A stretch of DNA of 54,360 bases, from UHGV virus genome UHGV-1841366, one strand, 5' to 3'. The notes under the pieces were generated by a model that did no database searches, was not told the origin of the DNA, and saw only the letters and a list, made by a program, of their open reading frames with translations. Positions within the stretch are counted from its first letter, which is position 1. The number at the start of each line of letters is the position of its first letter. The DNA comes from a virus. Below, piece by piece: positions 10,424-54,360 of the stretch. The position numbers were made by a program, and so were the translations under genes.

Positions 10424-10987
10424 TTAAAATGGAAGGATTCGGTCAACCCAATCGAAGAGAACAATCATTCTTGCATGTTCCCTGATTTTCATCGTCACCT
10501 GACAAGCATCAACGCCTAACGACACTCCCTCTATTTCACGGCCATCCGCCATGTAGACCCTTATAGATCTGCCGTTTTGATGAGCTTTGCGACATATCTT
10601 AAAAAAGTCACGACGTGATGGCTGGTTGTTCACGTAGTCAGGATGTACGGTAAGCCTGTCCGCAAAGTCCCCATCTACTTCTGGAGGTATAATCGTTTCT
10701 ATAGAGCTAACTTTCCCAAGAGGAAGACGAACTCGACGCTCTTTGCTTCTTGGAACGGGTGATAGATCAAGTTTGTTGCGTGATGGTAGTGTTCCCTGTA
10801 CATACATGTTGAATACCTGTCCATCTTCCATCGTGACTTTTACAGGAACAGAGTGTGCCCTCCAGAACATCAAGGTATGTTCCACATTAGAATAGTCTCG
10901 CGGCCATACTTCAGCCGGTATGCCGTATGTAATATCTTTCGTCGTCATATCATTATAAAGTGGTTGGCAATATGTCCATTGTACCAT
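10424..10987 (-). CDS. hypothetical protein
   Basis: ORF track, 187 aa; overlaps the upstream lipoprotein gene by 35 nt, so the true start may be the internal ATG at 10948; no clear ribosome-binding site for either. Confidence 0.4.
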   Translation of the reverse strand: MVQWTYCQPLYNDMTTKDITYGIPAEVWPRDYSNVEHTLMFWRAHSVPVKVTMEDGQVFNMYVQGTLPSRNKLDLSPVPRSKERRVRLPLGKVSSIETIIPPEVDGDFADRLTVHPDYVNNQPSRRDFFKICRKAHQNGRSIRVYMADGREIEGVSLGVDACQVTMKIREHARMIVLFDWVDRILPF

Positions 10988-12185: not shown

Positions 12186-13166
12186 TTAATTGGTGTTTTT
12201 GTTCTTCTCTTTTTTGCTAATTTCATCACATGTAAGGTTCATTATGTCTATGTTTTCTTGCTTTTGAAGGTTGCCGACAATTTTTTTGCGCAATTCATAA
12301 AATCGCTCGCGTGGTATAGCTTCCTTGTTGCCGTTGATGTGAAGTATTGCGTGACAGCTAGGGCAGACGGCAATCAGATCTGTTTTTGGGTTCACGCTTC
12401 GTGCATCTTCGCCTTGTGAAAGTGGGACGATGTGGTGAGCGTGTAGCAGCGTTTTCGTTTCTTTGCCGTCAATTTCCTTGCCGTATATTTCCGACATCGT
12501 TCTGCAACATAATTGACACCTGTAGTCTGCGTTTGCCAGAACGTCATTCCTTAACCCGGATACGCGGCTACGATGTTGCGACTGGATTAATCTTGTTTCG
12601 CCCTCTATATATTCCTCAACTTCTTCTTTCTGGAGGTCGTAGCTGATTTCTTCTTGAGTCGGATGGACTTTTTTGTATAGAAGATCAAGATATTTAATGT
12701 CCTCTGTTATATATTTGGAATCCTCTAGCGAGGATATTTTTCCTGAGTCTATGTAGTCAATTAATGTAATAAGGAACATCTCTATCGATAGCCTGTTTTT
12801 AAAGGCAAACGAATATCCAAGATGTCTTCTATCTCCTGAATGAATTGGCGTCCAATGAGATTTCTCAATTTTTTGTGGTGTTACGCAGATACCTTTGCCG
12901 ATATTGTTTACATGTTCCAATAATTGATAAACAGAATTAATGCGGTAAGCATGTGTTACTAAAGAATTTATTTTTCTTGTGCCGACGGAGGATTTTGTCA
13001 TAACAACATGATGAGATATTTGTTTTTTTAAAATCAAATCATACGATGTAGCTTTTTGGTTTTCGCCTTTGTCGGTTTTTTTTATTAAATTTAGTTTTTT
13101 ATTAGAGGCTATTTTCTCTATTTCTTCTCTAACTTCTTTTATCGTCATGTAAGTTTCTTTTGTCAT
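12186..13166 (-). CDS. HNH endonuclease with N-terminal domain of unknown function
   Basis: 326 aa; C-terminal HNH-type motif (CQLCC ... HAHHIVPLSQGEDARSVNPKTDLIAVCPSCHAILH); AT-rich. Confidence 0.6.
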   Translation of the reverse strand: MTKETYMTIKEVREEIEKIASNKKLNLIKKTDKGENQKATSYDLILKKQISHHVVMTKSSVGTRKINSLVTHAYRINSVYQLLEHVNNIGKGICVTPQKIEKSHWTPIHSGDRRHLGYSFAFKNRLSIEMFLITLIDYIDSGKISSLEDSKYITEDIKYLDLLYKKVHPTQEEISYDLQKEEVEEYIEGETRLIQSQHRSRVSGLRNDVLANADYRCQLCCRTMSEIYGKEIDGKETKTLLHAHHIVPLSQGEDARSVNPKTDLIAVCPSCHAILHINGNKEAIPRERFYELRKKIVGNLQKQENIDIMNLTCDEISKKEKNKNTN

Positions 13167-14226: not shown

Positions 14227-15786
14227 CTAATCTCGTTTCAGAACTCCAAAATCGAATGTGCCATCAATTGGCAATACACCTTCTGCAAAGCCAGGTGTGG
14301 TGTCGATGATGTGTTTTCGCTCATAAGAGTGAGACAACAGGTATTTGTTGCTAATGTCAATGAAATCAGTGATAAAACACACGTTTGCCTGATTTTTTTT
14401 TGCTCGTAAGCCACGACCGACACGCTGTCTCATTTCAACTTCTGCTTTCCCACCACCAGCAAGAATGACCGCGCCCACGCTTGGCACATCAACACCGACA
14501 TCCAGAATAGTCGAGCCTATTAAAACATCTATTTCGCCAGACGCTAAACTGTTCAGCTTTGCTTGCCTTGTCGTCTGGTTCGATTCCCCATAGATGAAGT
14601 CAACTCTAAGGCCGGACTCTTTCATCATCTCCATCAGGATTTGCCCGTGGCGTTTAAGACGAACCAGAGTCATGCAGTTGAGAGAATGTTGCTTATAGAG
14701 CAATGCTTCTCGTACTATGGCCTCGTTTCGTCCCAAATTATACACGATCCCCAACTGATAAGCTTTTTGGTAGGCAGTGCTCATACCTACCCTAAAATTG
14801 AGGTGTTTGTTGGCAAGTTCTGCCTTGATTCTGACCTCGTCTGGTTTGTAGGCAACTTTATGATAAAGGAAATATGGCTTTGCCAGAATACCTCTATCAA
14901 TCAGGTATTTTTCTGTAACTTTAATTTCAATTCGCCCGGCCACAGCCATCAGACGCATGTTGGCTTCTGTAGAAGCCTTCATGAACGGCGTTGCCGTAAG
15001 CGCCAGGCGATAGTCTGCGTTCGTACATAATCTGGCAATGTCATAGAAATTAGAGCCTGAAGACTCATGCGCCTCTTCCAGAATAAGAAGAGAGACACTT
15101 GAAAGGAAGCGCTTCACTAACTCCTGACGTTTGAGGTGGTAGCTCTTCTTATCTGGTGTTGCATCGCGTGGTGGTTCTTCGAGGAAACTTGCAATAGTTT
15201 GAACTGTAGCGACGTTGATATGTCGTGATACCTGAAACTCACCCGAGCCAATGATTCCAACCTTTTGGTCTTTTAACCACGGTTCGCCATTTTTGGCGCG
15301 GTAGTCGATGGATCTCTGGAAGTTTTCGGCCATCTGAAACATCAGAACAGATCGGGTTGTTAAAAATAATGTCATTCGACCGATACGTGCAGCTGCTTTG
15401 CAGGCAACGTTAGATTTCCCACCACCAGTAGCGATCTGCGCAATCATCATTCCCTCGCGAACCAGTGTTTCCACAGTCTGATCCTGATACGCATAATCAG
15501 GATTGTATGGGAATGGGTTAACCGCCGGATTTGGCTTTCCAAGCGCCGGGGCTTTGTCTTTGCGGATATGAACACATTTGATGCCCGCCTTGTTCAAGTT
15601 CGCCGCTACAGGCTTGGCAAAGCCAGCAGGGAACGAGTTTTTACTCCAGTGGAACATCGTGCTTGTGCCCTTCCAGTCGCCAGTGTCGACTTCGTAGCTC
15701 AACATCTGTTGCACCAGTTGCTTTACCTTGTCATCTGCGCCAGAAATAAGCGCATTTACTGCGTTAGATACAATCCGAACAGTCAT
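14227..15786 (-). CDS. SF2 DEAD/DEAH-type helicase
   Basis: 519 aa; Walker A ATGGGKS, motif II LEEAH, motif III LTATP, motif VI QRVGRGLR. Confidence 0.65.
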   Translation of the reverse strand: MTVRIVSNAVNALISGADDKVKQLVQQMLSYEVDTGDWKGTSTMFHWSKNSFPAGFAKPVAANLNKAGIKCVHIRKDKAPALGKPNPAVNPFPYNPDYAYQDQTVETLVREGMMIAQIATGGGKSNVACKAAARIGRMTLFLTTRSVLMFQMAENFQRSIDYRAKNGEPWLKDQKVGIIGSGEFQVSRHINVATVQTIASFLEEPPRDATPDKKSYHLKRQELVKRFLSSVSLLILEEAHESSGSNFYDIARLCTNADYRLALTATPFMKASTEANMRLMAVAGRIEIKVTEKYLIDRGILAKPYFLYHKVAYKPDEVRIKAELANKHLNFRVGMSTAYQKAYQLGIVYNLGRNEAIVREALLYKQHSLNCMTLVRLKRHGQILMEMMKESGLRVDFIYGESNQTTRQAKLNSLASGEIDVLIGSTILDVGVDVPSVGAVILAGGGKAEVEMRQRVGRGLRAKKNQANVCFITDFIDISNKYLLSHSYERKHIIDTTPGFAEGVLPIDGTFDFGVLKRD

Positions 15787-15868: not shown

Positions 15869-16549
15869 ATGGATGTAAAAATTACGATTTTGCAGGTTGA
15901 TGTTGCCAACCTTCGCCCGAATACCTGGAACACCAATTCGGTTGGTGCGCAGAATTTTGAAAAACTGAAAGGTTCTATCGAAAAATTAGGCTTTTTTAAA
16001 CCAATTTTGGCTCGTGAAATTGAAGATGGATTTTTTGAAATCCTCGGTGGCGAACATCGCTGGCGTGCCGCTATTGAGCAAGGAATTTCAACGGTTCCAG
16101 TGCTTTCTGTGGGCAAAATTAGCGATGTCGTAGCTAAACAGATGTCACTGGTGGACAACGAGCGATATGGTGAAGACGACCAAATCGCATTGCAACGCTT
16201 CATTGAAGAAATTCAGTCAGAACTTGACTATCAACTGTCTGAAATCGCCCCGTATGACGACGAAATCTCGATGGTTTTAGCAAAAGAGGCGGCAATCGAC
16301 CTTGAAGCACTGGAGGCGTTGTCTCGTGGTAGTGATGAGCCTGTCGATACCGACAAACGAGAGAAAACCGAACGTGTGGGGGCGGAACATCAGACCATGC
16401 GCTTCAAAGTAACTTTCGATGCGTCAGATCGTGTTGCAGAAACCATAAAAAACATCATCAAAGAGCAGGCTATTAACACCGGTAATGAAATGGAGAACGC
16501 TGGTGAGGCTCTGGTGTGGCTGGTCGACTACTACAAGGAGCGTATGTAA
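15869..16549 (+). CDS. ParB/Srx-like nuclease-domain protein 1
   Basis: GGEHRWRAA resembles the ParB GxxRxxA box; start taken at the first in-frame ATG (15851 is GTG); neither start has a strong ribosome-binding site. Confidence 0.55.
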   Translation: MDVKITILQVDVANLRPNTWNTNSVGAQNFEKLKGSIEKLGFFKPILAREIEDGFFEILGGEHRWRAAIEQGISTVPVLSVGKISDVVAKQMSLVDNERYGEDDQIALQRFIEEIQSELDYQLSEIAPYDDEISMVLAKEAAIDLEALEALSRGSDEPVDTDKREKTERVGAEHQTMRFKVTFDASDRVAETIKNIIKEQAINTGNEMENAGEALVWLVDYYKERM

Positions 16550-17217
16550 TGACCAAAAAGTTTGAAATCGTATATCGCGACCCGGCAGATCTTATTCCCT
16601 ATGAGATGAATGCCAAAAAGCATGATGAACAGCAGATCCGAGATCTGGCCGCAGCCATTAAAAAGCGCGGATTTGACCAGCCAATTACGGTCGATAAGAA
16701 CGACGTAATTATTACTGGCCACGGCCGCCGTGAGGCTGCAATTTTTGCTGGACTTGAGCGCGTACCGGTTATTGTTCGCGATGATCTCAGTGATGACGAG
16801 GTTCGTGCGAAGCGCCTTGAAGATAACCGACTTGCCAGCATTGATTACGATGCAATTAAGCTACAGAAAGAGCTTGAGTCGCTTGTTCTGGACGATATCG
16901 AGGTTTTCGGCTTTGAAGAGCGTGAGTTGAATGTTCTCGTTGGCAGCATGACAGAAGAAATGGACACCGACTCGCTAGTTATCGATCTGGGCGAAGAAAC
17001 TAAACGACAGAAGGATGAACACACCGAGATCAGTCGTGAAGTTGCAGCGGAAGAAGTACGTGTTGTCGACGTATTGGGCTTTAAAACGCTCCCTGCTGGC
17101 TCTGCCATTGTTGTTGGTGATTTGCTTGCCCACATGGAAGAAATGACGAGAGAAAGCGGGGTAGACGCATTTGTGGCATATGCGGAGAAGATCTCTTCCG
17201 GGGAGATGGCTGCATGA
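16550..17217 (+). CDS. ParB/Srx-like nuclease-domain protein 2
   Basis: ITGHGRREAA motif; ATG directly after the upstream TAA, with AGGAGCG ribosome-binding site. Confidence 0.55.
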
Positions 17218-17879
17218 GCAAATACATCATCAACGTATCGTTTCAGACACGCGTAAATAAAACCACGCGCACGTTGGAAATCGCTGAGTCGTTCGGGCTT
17301 GGCCTGGACGAAAAAGAGTGGACGCTTTACGACAATCTGGAGCTGGAAGTGAAGCAGGGCGATGTGGTGTACATCACCGGCCAATCCGGTTCAGGTAAAT
17401 CCGTTGTGTTGCGCGAGCTGCAACGCCAGATGAAGGATGAAGGGCTTTCTGTAGCTTCTATTGATGACTTTACCTTCGATAATGAGGTTAACGTCATTGA
17501 CCAACTGGGCAAAACTACCAGTGATGCGCTTGGGTTGTTATCTATGGCAGGTCTGAACGATGCATATCTGTTTGTTCGCAAGCCTTCTGAAATGTCAGAC
17601 GGTCAGAAATATCGTCTCAAGATTGCCAAACTGATTGAGTCAGGCGCTAAAGTGTGGGCTGCTGACGAGTTCGGTGCTGTTCTCGATCGTGTAACCGCTC
17701 AGGTTGTGGCATCTAACCTCCAGCGTGCCGCTCGAAAGGTTGGTGCGACGGTAATGGTGGCGACGACTCACGAAGACTTGAAGAACGCGCTGCGCCCGGA
17801 TATGCAGATCACCAAGCACTACAAAGAACGCGTGAAGGTGGAGTATCACAATGGTAGTCATGATGAGGCTCATTCATGA
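17214..17879 (+). CDS. small soluble ABC-type ATPase
   Basis: Walker A GQSGSGKS, signature-like SDGQKY, Walker B VWAADE, H-loop TTHED; ATGA overlap with the upstream gene. Confidence 0.55.
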   Translation: MSKYIINVSFQTRVNKTTRTLEIAESFGLGLDEKEWTLYDNLELEVKQGDVVYITGQSGSGKSVVLRELQRQMKDEGLSVASIDDFTFDNEVNVIDQLGKTTSDALGLLSMAGLNDAYLFVRKPSEMSDGQKYRLKIAKLIESGAKVWAADEFGAVLDRVTAQVVASNLQRAARKVGATVMVATTHEDLKNALRPDMQITKHYKERVKVEYHNGSHDEAHS

Positions 17880-18766
17880 CGGACATCATCATTAAACGCT
17901 ACCGCCCTGAAGAGTTTCCGCGTCATCTGGACTTTCTGGAGCGAATGACAGTCACAAAGGGAACTGTAGAGGACTGGCACGCTCTTAAGTCGCTTCACTA
18001 CAAAACAGACGGCAAACCTTTCGCGCCAACTTACTATCGCTGCGAACTTGACGACCGTCTGGTGGGCGTCGTGGTTATGGCTTACCCGAAACTACTGCTG
18101 GCACCTCGCCACCGCATGTTTCCTAAGTTGAAACCAACCACCAATACCACCGTGGCTAACCAGTACTGGGGTCGGTACGTGAATAACAACTTTGCGGTGA
18201 TCAGTCGCTCAGTTGTGGATACTCAGTATCGTGGCGTAGGCGTCTCTTATCGAATGATTAACCTGGTTAGCAGGATGCATGACCGGCCAATCATTGAGAT
18301 CCAGTCCTCGATGAGCAAATACAATCCCTTCGCCATGAAAGCAGGGTTTAAGTTCATCCGCCCTGAGCGACCGAAGAGCTATGAAAGTGCACTGCGTGTT
18401 TTCCAGCGTCATTTTCGCTCCGACCCGGGTGATAACGAGGCGATCGTCAAAGAGTTGTTCGCAATGAGCGAGTCACGTCGTCGCCGTGCACTGCGTGATA
18501 TGGTGGCGGACTACCACAAGAACAGTTCCCTGGCAAAAGCTGGGCGGAATCGTGGCACGACGATTCAGGACATTGCCGACAGTCTGGTGGACGAGGCCAG
18601 CATTGTGAAGCTGCTCAAGGACATTCACAACCTGAGCTTTACGTCTCCGCTGTATGGTGTGTACCGAAACCCTGACTTTGGTCGTCGACTGCCTGACACG
18701 CTGCCACTGCTGGCATTCGACAAACAACCTTTGGATAAACCGTTAGAAATTGCTTTACCGGCATAA
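17876..18766 (+). CDS. protein with N-terminal GNAT-like motif
   Basis: 296 aa; QYRGVG matches the GNAT Q/R-x-x-G-x-G/A acetyl-CoA motif preceded by a beta-strand-like stretch; ATGA overlap with the ATPase gene. Confidence 0.4.
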   Translation: MTDIIIKRYRPEEFPRHLDFLERMTVTKGTVEDWHALKSLHYKTDGKPFAPTYYRCELDDRLVGVVVMAYPKLLLAPRHRMFPKLKPTTNTTVANQYWGRYVNNNFAVISRSVVDTQYRGVGVSYRMINLVSRMHDRPIIEIQSSMSKYNPFAMKAGFKFIRPERPKSYESALRVFQRHFRSDPGDNEAIVKELFAMSESRRRRALRDMVADYHKNSSLAKAGRNRGTTIQDIADSLVDEASIVKLLKDIHNLSFTSPLYGVYRNPDFGRRLPDTLPLLAFDKQPLDKPLEIALPA

Positions 18767-18775
18767 GGATTTGCC

Positions 18776-19042
18776 ATGACGTTAACCGACAAACAAAAGG
18801 ACATAATCAAAACGCTCAATCTCGGTTATGAGCGAGGTCATCTACTTGATCTGGACGAATTGCTTGAAGTTTTGCCGTACAAGACAACCAAGCAAAGTAT
18901 CCAGTTCTCAATTCGCGCTCTGATAAAAAAGGGGCTGGTGGAGAAAGGGCATACGCGTCAACGCAGTGACAATCGCTATCACCGCCGGACTCTTGGGTTA
19001 ACCACTTTAGGTCGAGCCAAAGCGAAGTTACTGGTGATGTAA
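18776..19042 (+). CDS. small putative DNA-binding protein
   Basis: 88 aa, basic; carries a Chi octamer at 18934-18941; followed by hairpin repeat copy B. Confidence 0.35.
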   Translation: MTLTDKQKDIIKTLNLGYERGHLLDLDELLEVLPYKTTKQSIQFSIRALIKKGLVEKGHTRQRSDNRYHRRTLGLTTLGRAKAKLLVM

Positions 19043-19066
19043 TCGGTCTGGGAGCTTATTTAAAGA

Positions 19067-19122
19067 CCTGCTTCTGTATATATAAATAATAAGTAACTTA
19101 ATAAATATATACGGAAGCAGGC
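19067..19122. repeat. long AT-rich-loop hairpin, copy B
   Basis: CCTGCTTCTGTATATATAAATAATAAGTAACTTAATAAATATATACGGAAGCAGG; one stem mismatch relative to copy A. Confidence 0.7.
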
Positions 19123-19185
19123 TTAATAAGACATGCCCAGATTCAATTAAACACACCAGTAAACAAGTTGGTTAATAGATGCAGT

Positions 19186-19198
19186 AAACAAGTTGTTT
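19186..19198. promoter_or_regulatory. palindromic motif AAACAA-N-TTGTTT (copy upstream of terS)
   Basis: Perfect copy; variant copy at 19161-19173; followed by palindrome GAGCGC-ATGGAC-GCGCTC and the ATG at 19239. Confidence 0.5.
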
Positions 19199-19238
19199 TA
19201 GAGCGCATGGACGCGCTCTATGTGTTTTAGAGGGATCT

Positions 19239-19871
19239 ATGACTGTCGAAAAAGACGAGGTGAAAACTCGCCTGACACCAGCGGAGTGGGCCGAAGCTGA
19301 AGCCAAATGGACGTCAGGCGAATATACACTCTCAAAGCTGGAGGAAGAGTACGGCATTCGTCGTGAAACACTCTCCAGACATTTCAAAAAGCGAGGATTA
19401 GAGAAAGGCGCGGACTCTGTTGGGAAGATGGTTCGTGAGTCTCTTAAATCTGACGCAGAGCTTCGCGCTAAAGCCCGTGCGGAAAAGATAGAAGAACGTC
19501 GTACACGTTATGACGGCTGGGCGTATGCGTTGGGGCAGATGGTGATGGTCGAAGTCACTACGGCCAAGCGTGAGGGTAAGCCTTTAGGGGCGATTGAGGA
19601 TTCTCTCAAGAGCTTACAGAGAGCAAGTAATACCCTTGCAAAATGCTTTGAAGTTTCGTCCAAAGCATTGGGTATGGATCATGCGGAAAATGACGAGGAA
19701 GAAATTCCGAACCTGGTATTTGGTGAGCTTACGCCTTCCCAGGTGGCGAAATTACGTCAGGAAGACGACGAGCCTGAAATCATCGATGACGAATTGCTTG
19801 AGACGTTGGAAGAAGAAGCTCTAAGCGAATTTGATGCGACAGATGATGGAAGTGAAGGGGAGGACGAATAA
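19239..19871 (+). CDS. terminase small subunit (putative)
   Basis: 210 aa directly upstream of TerL with a 1-nt overlap; basic N-terminal region, very acidic C-terminus. Confidence 0.55.
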   Translation: MTVEKDEVKTRLTPAEWAEAEAKWTSGEYTLSKLEEEYGIRRETLSRHFKKRGLEKGADSVGKMVRESLKSDAELRAKARAEKIEERRTRYDGWAYALGQMVMVEVTTAKREGKPLGAIEDSLKSLQRASNTLAKCFEVSSKALGMDHAENDEEEIPNLVFGELTPSQVAKLRQEDDEPEIIDDELLETLEEEALSEFDATDDGSEGEDE

Positions 19872-21127
19872 TGGCAATCCCGTCCTCGCTCAGTCTTGTG
19901 CAACTGCATTCTGGACAGATGAAAGTCTTCCAGTCTCCGCATCGATTTAAAGTTGTTTGTGCTGGTCGACGCTGGGGAAAATCCCGGTTGTCGATCTCCA
20001 CTATTATTCGTGCGGCGGCAAAGGAAAAAAAGCAAAGGGTCTGGTATGTCGCTCCTACTTACCAGATGGCTCGCCAGATTTTGTGGGACGATCTACAGGA
20101 AATTCTGCCCCGTAAGTGGGTTAGGAAAAAGAACGACACCACGATGACAATCGTGTTGAAGAACGGTTCGGAGATCGCCCTCAAAGGTGCTGATAAGCCT
20201 GACACTCTGCGCGGCGTAGCGTTGCATTTTGTAGTGCTTGATGAATTTCAGGATATGAAGGCTGACACCTGGTACAAGGTGTTACGACCTACTCTTTCAT
20301 CGACACGCGGCGGTGCACTGATTATTGGTACGCCAAAAGGCTTCTCGGAATTTCACAAACTGTGGACTATAGGCCAGAACGTAGAGCTGCAAAGAAAGGG
20401 ACAGTGGAAGAGCTGGCAGTTTGTAACTGCTGATTCTCCGTTTGTGCCTACGGCGGAAATTGAAGCTGCTAAGAACGATATGGACCCTAAATCGTTCGCT
20501 CAGGAGTACCTGGCCAGCTTTGAAAATATGTCCGGGCGCGTTTACTACCCGTTCGATCGAAACGTGCATGTTAAACCGCTTCAGTTCAACCCTCGGTTGC
20601 CTATATGGGTAGGACAGGACTTTAACATTGACCCGATGTCTTCCGTAATTTTGCAACCTCAGCCAAATGGTGAGCTATGGGCAATTGATGAATTGGTGCT
20701 CTTTTCTTCTAACACGGCAGAAGTTTGTGATGAGCTTGAGAGGCGCTTCTGGCGCTGGAAATCACAGGTAACGGTATTTCCAGATCCGGCAGGTGCTTAT
20801 CGCCAACATGCTCGCGGGGAGTCTGACGTAGACATATTCAAAGAGAAGGGATTCTTACGTGTCGATTATTCGAAAAAGCACCCGCCAATTGCGGATCGTG
20901 TTAATGCTGTTAACCGAATGCTGATGACCGCATCTGGAGATATCCGGCTGTATATCGATCCGAAGTGCAAGCATTTGATTGATTCACTGGAAAAGGTCAT
21001 CTACAAGCCTGGAACACGAGATATGGATAAGACAGGTGGCATTGAGCATAGTGCAGACGCATTGGGCTATCCAGTACATCGTAGGTATCCAGTCAAAAAC
21101 CGTGTTATTCTTGGTGGTTCTCGATAG
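19871..21127 (+). CDS. terminase large subunit
   Basis: 418 aa; Walker A-like VVCAGRRWGKS near the N-terminus, acidic nuclease-like C-terminal half; position ahead of portal. Confidence 0.75.
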   Translation: MAIPSSLSLVQLHSGQMKVFQSPHRFKVVCAGRRWGKSRLSISTIIRAAAKEKKQRVWYVAPTYQMARQILWDDLQEILPRKWVRKKNDTTMTIVLKNGSEIALKGADKPDTLRGVALHFVVLDEFQDMKADTWYKVLRPTLSSTRGGALIIGTPKGFSEFHKLWTIGQNVELQRKGQWKSWQFVTADSPFVPTAEIEAAKNDMDPKSFAQEYLASFENMSGRVYYPFDRNVHVKPLQFNPRLPIWVGQDFNIDPMSSVILQPQPNGELWAIDELVLFSSNTAEVCDELERRFWRWKSQVTVFPDPAGAYRQHARGESDVDIFKEKGFLRVDYSKKHPPIADRVNAVNRMLMTASGDIRLYIDPKCKHLIDSLEKVIYKPGTRDMDKTGGIEHSADALGYPVHRRYPVKNRVILGGSR

Positions 21128-54113: not shown

Positions 54114-54188
54114 GATGGTGTAGCTCAGCGGCAGAGCAGTTGGCTGTTAACCAACTGGTCGGTGGTTCGAATCCACCCACCATCGCCA
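54114..54188 (+). tRNA. tRNA-Asn (anticodon GTT)
   Basis: Hand-folded cloverleaf: acceptor GATGGTG/CACCATC, D-stem GCTC/GAGC, anticodon stem GTTGG/CCAAC with loop CTGTTAA, T-arm GGTGG-TTCGAAT-CCACC, discriminator G, encoded CCA; 75 nt. Confidence 0.8.
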
Positions 54189-54193
54189 ATTTA

Positions 54194-54280
54194 GGGGAGT
54201 TAGTCCGTAGGGGTAGCGGGGTAGACTGTAAATCTACTGTCATTGCGACTCGGGTGGTTCGACTCCATCACTCCCCACCA
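54194..54280 (+). tRNA. tRNA-Tyr (anticodon GTA), long variable arm
   Basis: Acceptor GGGGAGT/ACTCCCC, anticodon stem GTAGA/TCTAC with loop CTGTAAA, 15-nt variable arm, T-loop TTCGACT, encoded CCA; 87 nt. Confidence 0.75.
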
Positions 54281-54284
54281 AATT

Positions 54285-54360
54285 GCCGGTTTAGCTCAGT
54301 TGGTAGAGCAGTCGCTTTGTAAGCGAATGGCCAGCGGTTCAAGTCCGTTAACCGGCACCA
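54285..54360 (+). tRNA. tRNA-Thr (anticodon TGT)
   Basis: Acceptor GCCGGTT/AACCGGC, D-arm TAGCTCAGTTGGTAGAGC, anticodon loop TTTGTAA, T-loop TTCAAGT, encoded CCA; 76 nt fits standard numbering; ends exactly at the window edge. Confidence 0.7.

Follow-up and report, generated by a model that had tools for sequence, protein, structure and literature searches.

A split ABC ATPase-GNAT enzyme with two ParB-like partners beside the terminase genes of an SSU5-like phage-plasmid, a candidate for DNA acylation

Introduction

Mom of phage Mu is an adenine N6 acyl-modification enzyme of the GNAT superfamily. TmcA and NAT10 join a P-loop ATPase module to a GNAT domain, and carry out the acetyl-coenzyme A (acetyl-CoA) dependent acetylation of an exocyclic base amine, N4 of cytidine in RNA. 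DpdB is a further ParB/Srx-fold partner of a DNA-modifying enzyme, and the region upstream of terminase genes is a common site for DNA methylase genes. The combination of an ABC ATPase and a GNAT domain was predicted by the Aravind laboratory to be a DNA nucleobase acylation system (Iyer, Zhang, Burroughs and Aravind, 2013), and the prediction is restated in PMC7824862, which gives phage pT24 as the example. Here we describe a relative of this system in UHGV virus genome UHGV-1841366, a stretch of 54,360 nucleotides that we call, at its full length, the window. The window is an SSU5-like phage-plasmid, 97-98% identical to the Escherichia phages CMS-2020a, PhiR41_1 and Cyrano; Salmonella phage SSU5 and Klebsiella phage-plasmids are 80-85% identical to it. 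Upstream of its packaging genes lie genes for two ParB-like proteins (g1 and g2), an ABC-type ATPase (g3) and a GNAT-like protein (g4). An earlier reading of the sequence (the original prediction) had proposed that these four genes form a cassette that matches no named system.

Related enzymes and domains have been described in several contexts. A 2025 survey of the ParB-CTPase fold reported ParB-acetyltransferase and ParB-methyltransferase fusions, but not the present cassette; the ParB-fold-acetyltransferase fusions bind GTP (PMC12704722). ASCH proteins bind or hydrolyse N4-acylcytosines (PMC6972931) and have been reported in a preprint as erasers of N4-acetylcytidine (ac4C) in tRNA (bioRxiv 10.64898/2026.02.27.708502). 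Our literature searches found no functional or experimental study of any member of the module, and the ABC-GNAT cassette is not discussed in a 2024 paper on Dnd or in a 2025 review of restriction-modification.

The ABC and GNAT genes as halves of one enzyme

The gene g3 (17214-17879, + strand) encodes a soluble ABC-type nucleotide-binding domain of 221 aa (ABC_tran, 5.7e-13; phrog_293 and phrog_11143). The Walker A, signature, Walker B and H-loop motifs are all invariant in its family, which bears out the ABC-type call of the original prediction. The gene g4 (17876-18766, + strand) encodes a predicted acyltransferase of 296 aa with an isoelectric point (pI) of 9.8 and a helical C-terminal elaboration. 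The GNAT fold, first proposed from a short motif, is confirmed by structural comparison, and the structural neighbours include protein N-acetyltransferases and a polyamine N-acetyltransferase. In the structural model the C-terminal region seems to elaborate the GNAT fold, either internally or past its end. A search of the g4 sequence profile against PDB sequences gave no match, and the GNAT part has no TmcA-type Pfam match, only Acetyltransf_1, _7 and _10. Residues R111, D115, T116, R119 and G122 of g4 are invariant. The ATPase and GNAT motifs are invariant in 24-25 divergent orthologues at ~40% identity, which predicts an active enzyme.

The relationship between the two genes emerges from their more distant relatives. 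When the g4 profile was searched against 1.84 billion representative proteins, 905 relatives were found. Beyond the phage lineage most of them are 440-500 aa long and resemble g4 over residues ~200-480 (E 1e-15 to 1e-27), and an ABC_tran domain precedes the g4-like region in all ten relatives checked. The fused proteins align with both g3 and g4, including the distinctive N-terminal motif of g3, the GNAT motif and the C-terminal Y.W.NP of g4. As judged from these alignments, g3 and g4 together correspond to one ABC ATPase-GNAT protein, the COG2401 architecture, here encoded in two pieces. In the window the two domains are encoded not as one polypeptide but by separate genes that overlap by ATGA, and in some relatives inserted genes separate them.

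The fused architecture already carries the label COG2401/MK0520, applied by JGI and some depositors, and pT24 belongs to the same family: tblastn searches with P0184 and with Pmp13 gp48 match pT24 ABC genes, and the hidden Markov model of the g3 family matches pT24 gp038 at 9.6e-25. The suggestion that the cassette is an undescribed module therefore does not hold, since g3 and g4 correspond to the halves of a labelled architecture with a published acylation prediction (PMC7824862).

Four matches of the profile search (P0166, P0177, P0204 and P0156) have unusual architectures. Among them are one fused ABC-GNAT protein with a LAGLIDADG-endonuclease intein inside the ABC domain, two in which a family-B DNA polymerase lies N-terminal to ABC-GNAT in the same open reading frame, and one with a TFIIB repeat at the C-terminus.

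The ParB-like proteins and the organization of the gene unit

The two genes upstream of g3 encode acidic proteins (pI ~4.6), in contrast to the strongly basic g4. The product of g1 (15869-16549, + strand; 226 aa, pI 4.55) matches ParB_N at 1.8e-13 and phrog_723, and that of g2 (16549-17217, + strand; 222 aa, pI 4.57) matches ParB_N at 1.3e-8 and phrog_930. They had been called paralogous ParB/Srx proteins; this stands for the N-terminal ParB domain (33% identity over 116 aa, E 4e-10) and does not extend beyond it. The invariant motifs are GGxHR and DN.R(Y)G in g1, and GHGR and DN.R in g2. The g2 protein has an acidic C-terminal half with no recognisable helix-turn-helix (HTH), and when the family profile is compared with solved ParB, Noc, KorB and sulfiredoxin structures, the match is limited to the nucleoside triphosphate (NTP) binding domain, at positions up to 95. 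Compared with canonical ParB, g1 and g2 thus have the N-terminal NTP-binding domain, but the central HTH and the GERRxR arginine patch are absent, with GGxHR (g1) and GHGR (g2) instead. No ParA/CbiA-type gene is present in the unit; the neighbours are the helicase, the ABC domain and the GNAT protein. The closest relatives of g2 are the ParB parts of phage ParB-methyltransferase fusions (phrog_498, 1.7e-31; PADLOC MTase_II, 2.6e-17).

The two ParB-like proteins appear to differ in their standing. The ParB-like protein gp47 of Pasteurella phage Pmp13 matches the g2 family at 5.9e-43, which makes g2 the core partner of the ABC-GNAT enzyme and g1 an added paralogue. Within its own lineage g1 is nevertheless kept, in all 25 genome loci long enough to contain it.

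The four genes are co-directional on the + strand, at the coordinates first proposed. All of the motifs that had been read from the translations (GGEHRWRAA, ITGHGRREAA, GQSGSGKS, SDGQKY, VWAADE, TTHED and QYRGVG) are present, and so are the ATGA overlaps that join g2 to g3 (17214) and g3 to g4 (17876). The junction of g1 and g2 needed correction: it had been given as TAA-ATG at 16547-16552, and is in fact TAATG, a 1-nt overlap at 16547-16551, preceded by a Shine-Dalgarno sequence, AAGGAG, at 16535. A fifth gene, g5 (18776-19042, + strand), starts 10 nt past the end of g4 and so belongs to the same tightly spaced unit. It encodes a winged-helix protein of 88 aa (pI 10.2) that matches phrog_900 at 1.9e-45 and, weakly, winged HTH proteins of the Sta1, Lrs14 and LexA types; it is probably a DNA-binding or regulatory subunit. 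Full-length PHROG families exist for the cassette genes. The proposed four-gene cassette is thus real as to its four genes, but incomplete as a description of the unit, to which g5 also belongs, and of the core, which elsewhere has two parts and does without g1.

Conservation within the SSU5-type lineage

The lineage was scanned with one genome per species, which gave 26 loci from Gamma- and Alphaproteobacteria with g4 identities of 37-99%. The gene order helicase (- strand), ParB1, ParB2, ABC, g4, winged helix, g6, large terminase subunit (TerL), portal is kept in all 22 loci long enough to span the block, and the four truncated loci carry the matching part of it. The winged-helix gene g5 was undetected in four of the 22 full-span loci and detected in 20 of the 24 divergent loci aligned. 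The block was also seen in the distant relatives inspected (nickie, BUCTxx99 and JGB6) and in a Klebsiella relative. Co-conservation in related phages, which the original prediction had made a test of the cassette, is therefore borne out, with g5 undetected in four loci.

Among 50,697 deposited phage genomes, g4 is present in 31 records, 30 of them genomes of 103-122 kb and the exception an incomplete 84-kb record. The carriers are SSU5-like phages, Rhizobium RHEph10-like phages, Pseudomonas nickie-like phages, and Stenotrophomonas and Xanthomonas phages. In complete E. coli genomes the cassette is found in 244 of 5,426, always on phage-plasmids of ~108 kb.

The helicase gene that faces g1 (DEAD/ResIII-type, 519 aa; 14227-15786, - strand) is divergent from it, with 82 nt between the two. 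It is co-conserved with the cassette in the SSU5-type lineage only, and does not lie beside the module in Jace, Pmp13, LE4 or 315.4. It was therefore rejected as a part of the module.

Translational coupling of the genes, as first proposed, is found in the window but is not universal, because some sublineages carry genes inserted between g1 and g2, g2 and g3, or g3 and g4. The inserted genes encode a Tad2-like anti-Thoeris domain, a protein of the N4-gp49/Sf6-gp66 family and a PNKP-type phosphatase. Accessory insertions lie inside the cassette in loci L100 (6976-7284), L105 (7406-7708), L091 (7652-8002) and L095 (7112-7573); the Tad2-like gene is in L100 (5e-22), with a homologue in L105, and the other inserts match Phage_gp49_66 and the HAD_PNKP phosphatase. 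In the unrelated phage Pmp13 (L124, 2817-3374) a fusion of gp49_66 and Tad2-like domains lies two genes upstream of the ParB-ABC-GNAT unit. Two further inserts gave no Pfam match: an acidic Cys-rich protein of 48-72 aa (CxxC…CxxC, zinc-ribbon-like) between g1 and g2 in eight loci (L092 and L094-L100), and a protein of ~120-140 aa between g2 and g3 in five alphaproteobacterial loci.

Three kinds of locus in this lineage are unusual. L108, on the Halomonas sulfidaeris chromosome AP019514.1, has the helicase-to-portal block but with the helicase, g4, TerL and portal genes fragmented, and looks like a decaying integrated relative of the phage lineage. The TerL reading frames of L087 (9944-12193) and L094 (10024-12540) have about twice the usual length (~750-840 aa versus 418 aa), and may be intein-containing terminases. 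In L083, a 108-kb contig labelled Yersinia pestis NCTC5923, g4 is 99% identical to that of the window and is separated from ABC by an additional gene of 84 aa; the contig represents either a phage-plasmid of the pHCM2/SSU5 type in Yersinia or a problem with the label.

Distribution and neighbourhoods of the ABC-GNAT family

The fused form is very widespread. It comprises more than 2,100 protein clusters, the named ones mostly from archaeal metagenome-assembled genomes with some from Firmicutes, and all seven genomic contexts sampled are tailed viruses or proviruses. Scans of IMG/VR confirmed at least 585 stretches with a short form and at least 429 with a long form; the neighbourhood counts below refer to the best 80 of each scan.

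The short fused form, of ~365 aa, occurs in many unrelated bacterial phages, such as Pasteurella Pmp13, Gordonia/Rhodococcus Jace and Arthrobacter EastWest; the hhalign probability for the Pmp13 and Jace proteins is 99.9%. Further carriers are S. pyogenes prophages, Lactococcus P335, Leptospira LE3 and LE4, Burkholderia phiE255 and Tenacibaculum pT24. A ParB-like gene immediately precedes the short form in 60 of 74 loci, usually with an overlap of 4-22 nt (targets were 42 clusters at 70% identity). The core of the module is thus a two-part unit of a ParB-like protein and ABC-GNAT, found in many unrelated phages.

At the first and second positions downstream in 76 short-form loci, the genes met most often encode terminase subunits, which belong to at least four Pfam families, and the module is close to terminase genes also in Pmp13, LE4 and prophage 315.4. 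In 315.4 the order is ParB, ABC, GNAT piece, ASCH, a small gene, TerL, portal. Genes that also recur at these two positions encode aspartate decarboxylase (5), a CoA-transferase-III-like protein (5) and ASCH/DUF3850 (5 of 143 neighbours). In Jace and five contigs, ParB, ABC-GNAT, the aspartate decarboxylase PanD and the CoA-transferase-III-like protein form a translationally coupled operon. In the Mu-like phage phiE255, ABC-GNAT and a formyltransferase-family gene follow the tail-fibre genes, at the position that com-mom occupies in Mu.

For the long, archaeal-type form, TerL is the gene immediately upstream in 51 of 75 loci, ASCH is the commonest downstream domain (7 of 91 neighbours), and in archaeal proviruses the fused gene adjoins connector, tail or capsid genes. 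In three Firmicutes prophages (L112, L113 and L118) the order is ABC-GNAT, Amidoligase_2, (GGACT), TerL, portal. The Amidoligase_2 and GGACT/AIG2 genes of these prophages and the formyltransferase gene of phiE255 are hints of a variable acyl or aminoacyl chemistry beside the module. As a separate observation, in the long-form set (L126-L205) the contig ends within 300 nt past the ABC-GNAT gene in 23 of 76 loci, and TerL and ABC-GNAT are often the terminal gene pair of predicted archaeal-type proviruses.

A predicted role in DNA acylation

The reading that we tentatively favour is that the module acts late, as an ATP-dependent acyltransferase whose target is a base of the phage DNA that is about to be packaged or is being packaged, with the ParB/Srx proteins as NTP-dependent partners. 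It starts from the observed domain identities, the split-gene relationship, the conservation of motifs and the neighbourhood statistics; from these we infer what the substrate is (DNA), which chemistry is carried out and when, and what ParB and g5 contribute. Late in infection, the enzyme would take an acyl group from a CoA thioester and attach it to a base of the phage's own DNA, at an exocyclic amine. Acetyl-CoA or another host acyl-CoA would probably be the donor in the SSU5 lineage, with a dedicated donor such as beta-alanyl-CoA elsewhere; a mark of the N4-acyl-cytosine type is the leading guess. The ABC domains would dimerise and, by analogy with the ATPase module of TmcA/NAT10, use ATP binding and hydrolysis to clamp or remodel the DNA substrate. 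The core protein g2 and the extra protein g1 may act as NTP-dependent targeting or regulatory subunits, as ParB-fold proteins do in other DNA-modification systems, and the winged HTH protein g5 may serve in DNA binding or regulation. Modification just before or during packaging would allow the injected DNA to escape restriction in the next host.

Acyl-nucleobase chemistry on DNA is favoured because of the acyl-donor genes in some variants of the module, the ASCH neighbours, the mom-equivalent position of the gene in phiE255, and the anti-defence (Tad2-like) genes nested in or beside the module. The charge contrast between basic g4 and acidic g1 and g2 is also counted in its favour, and the earlier prediction of DNA-base acylation for ABC-GNAT, in the form in which PMC7824862 restates it, is counted as independent support. 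DNA modification, which the original prediction had named among its candidate roles, thus remains the best explanation.

Several points weigh on the other side. There is no direct evidence of a modified base, and our searches found no account of unusual virion DNA for SSU5-like phages, whose genomes have often been sequenced. ASCH genes accompany the module at a modest frequency, and the known ASCH enzymes act on nucleosides or tRNA. No specific similarity links g4 to Mom; the structural neighbours of its GNAT domain are mostly protein and small-molecule acetyltransferases, and the ABC domain of g3 is nearest to transporter and ABC-F nucleotide-binding domains rather than to DNA-binding ABC ATPases. 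The two ParB-like proteins are acidic and no HTH can be recognised in them, so that direct binding of DNA by them is only putative. ParB occurs in only one of 80 long archaeal-type loci, and is thus not essential to the enzyme. Lastly, the very strong adjacency to terminase could instead reflect a role in packaging itself.

Alternative explanations

A role in packaging would have the enzyme and its ParB partners acylate a terminase, portal or head protein, or neutralise or modify a packaging cofactor such as polyamines; alternatively, ParB might mark the pac-proximal DNA for the terminase. That the gene stays beside terminase in bacterial as well as archaeal viruses, with terminases of at least four families, speaks for such a role; in one archaeal provirus the fused gene has the major capsid gene on one side and the tail genes on the other, the cassette of the window abuts the intergenic region where the SSU5 and Cyrano records start, and protein and polyamine N-acetyltransferases are among the structural neighbours of g4. 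We nonetheless consider this explanation unlikely. It leaves the PanD and CoA-transferase-like donor genes and the ASCH neighbours unexplained, the gene is away from terminase in phiE255 and in Gordonia phages (deposited as linear records), and most tailed phages package their DNA without such a gene. DNA methylase genes, too, are common upstream of terminase. The two ideas could be combined in a scheme that we think quite improbable, in which the ParB/Srx proteins load in an NTP-dependent manner near the pac-proximal end and recruit ABC-GNAT, so that an unprecedented acyl base, for example N4-acetyl- or N4-beta-alanyl-deoxycytidine, is placed only on DNA entering capsids, by an ancient system that has travelled with terminase in bacterial and archaeal tailed viruses. 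Equally doubtful in our view is a role in host take-over or anti-defence, by acylation of a host protein or small molecule (an immune nucleotide, a defence protein or RNA polymerase) with ParB/Srx as a nucleotide-binding or nucleotide-hydrolysing partner. In its favour, the accessory genes inserted in or next to the module include ones for Tad2-like anti-Thoeris domains; host RNA polymerase is a known target of phage GNATs (Rac of phiKMV-like phages; PMC7824862); and proteins of the ParB fold, which bacteria also have as fusions to acetyltransferases, bind a range of NTPs (PMC12704722). Counter-defence genes are, however, usually variable, whereas this module persists as a core gene throughout a phage lineage, at ~40% identity; it is placed with packaging genes and not with early genes, and its matches to defence and anti-defence models are limited to generic ATPase and ParB-methyltransferase parts.

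The logic of an ATPase joined to a GNAT domain is shared with TmcA/NAT10, so the substrate might instead be cytidine in RNA, with ac4C-like marks on phage or host tRNA or mRNA tuning late translation. The report of ASCH proteins as tRNA ac4C erasers (bioRxiv 10.64898/2026.02.27.708502) and the tRNA genes carried by SSU5-lineage phages are compatible with this. The ParB/Srx partner and the linkage to terminase point to DNA, however, the ATPase is of the ABC and not the TmcA helicase type, and tRNA genes are few or absent near the module in many carriers, Pmp13 and 315.4 among them; we regard RNA acylation as very unlikely. The annotations taken at face value, plasmid partition by ParB and an ABC transporter ATPase, are effectively refuted by architecture and distribution. 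Relatives are indeed named "chromosome partitioning protein ParB" and "ABC transporter ATP-binding protein", and the element is a phage-plasmid. The unit has neither ParA nor a permease, and the ParB-like proteins have neither an HTH nor the canonical GERRxR; the module is also carried by integrated prophages, by phages with genomes deposited in linear form and by archaeal proviruses. A partition function was rejected on the absence of ParA and HTH together with the occurrence in integrated prophages and archaeal proviruses. A transporter was likewise rejected: no permease or substrate-binding gene is present in the unit or in the related loci inspected, and the ABC domain is fused to GNAT in most relatives.

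Other features of the window

The packaging genes follow the cassette, as first described, after g5 and an intergenic region of 196 nt (19043-19238). Next comes g6 (19239-19871, + strand), an acidic protein of 210 aa that matches phrog_867 ("DNA binding domain") and, from its position and size, is probably the small terminase subunit. It overlaps the start of TerL (19871-21127, + strand; Terminase_6N at 2e-9, Terminase_6C), and the portal gene is next. The intergenic region is AT-rich, with an AT-rich near-palindrome, two direct copies of CAGTAAACAAGTTG (19157 and 19182) and a GC-rich hairpin with a T-run (19199-19230). Both ends of the SSU5 and Cyrano sequences, as deposited in GenBank, fall inside this region, at about window 19100-19104. 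It is a candidate for an operon terminator, a late promoter or a pac/cos genome end. In a promoter and terminator scan of the cassette, sites were no commoner than in shuffled sequences, and the hairpin at 19199-19230 alone was well placed.

Other features lie at lower coordinates than the helicase gene and at the end of the window. A 187-aa protein (10424-10987, - strand) matches Flag1_repress (PF03614, 1.2e-70), as a FljA-like repressor of phase-1 flagellin, and its presence on a phage-plasmid could alter the expression of the host's flagellar antigen. A 326-aa protein (12186-13166, - strand) has a C-terminal HNH nuclease motif (PF01844, 1e-4). The stretch around it, at 9-14 kb, has a GC content of 0.35-0.41 versus 0.45-0.51 in the cassette and structural genes, and looks like a recently acquired accessory island. 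The window ends in a cluster of tRNA-Asn(GTT), tRNA-Tyr(GTA) and tRNA-Thr(TGT) genes (54114-54360, + strand); in phage nickie, tRNA-Met and tRNA-Asn genes adjoin the helicase gene.

Significance

The interest of the family lies in its very wide spread among viruses of bacteria and archaea, with a chemistry that is only predicted. If DNA acylation is correct, the module writes an acyl modification of DNA bases, a class never demonstrated apart from Mom, and the mark would be relevant to restriction evasion, the host range of phages used in therapy, nanopore base-calling and biotechnology. Phages with the SSU5-lineage version grow on E. coli K-12 and Salmonella LT2, which makes a thirteen-year-old prediction directly testable in standard hosts. 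The element belongs to a type, the phage-plasmid, that is known to spread resistance genes. The analysis also corrects a pervasive mis-annotation of module members as "ABC transporter", "partition protein" or "DNA modification methylase".

Comparison with described systems

Mom and g4 have in common the GNAT/acyl-CoA N-acyltransferase fold, and the analogy to Mom that had been drawn for g4 is valid at this superfamily level. It does not extend to a specific relation: the hhalign probability between Mom and the g4 family is 0.2%, with 18 columns aligned at motif A, and membership of the Mom family was rejected. Mom also works without an ATPase and without a ParB partner, and no Com-like regulator was seen with the module of the window. 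A known defence or anti-defence system was likewise rejected, PADLOC giving generic matches only (the ParB part of MTase_II, and mad3/mad8 or PtuA-type ATPases).

TmcA/NAT10 resembles g3 and g4 in coupling an ATPase to a GNAT domain, and the recurrence of ASCH genes beside the phage module adds to the likeness. The ATPase of TmcA/NAT10 is helicase-type (DUF1726/TmcA helicase) and is fused to a GNAT of the TmcA type and to a domain that binds tRNA, whereas g3 is ABC-type, and TmcA/NAT10 acts on RNA, whereas the genomic associations of the phage module point to DNA. In DndB and in the ParB-methyltransferase and ParB-acetyltransferase fusions, as in the window, a ParB N-domain is tied to a nucleic-acid-modifying enzyme; unlike in the fusions, the ParB of the module stands alone, as an acidic protein of ~180-220 aa that lacks an HTH.

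The closest described system is COG2401 ABC-GNAT, which has the same two catalytic domains, is homologous over both halves and is also virus-borne. The window differs from it in having the enzyme split into two overlapping genes, and in having two ParB paralogues and a winged HTH gene. Its g4 has a long C-terminal elaboration, as in the archaeal-virus form, yet it has ParB partners, as in the bacterial short form. The module thus falls into no new category; with its split enzyme and duplicated ParB it is a variant of a family computationally predicted to be an acylation system.

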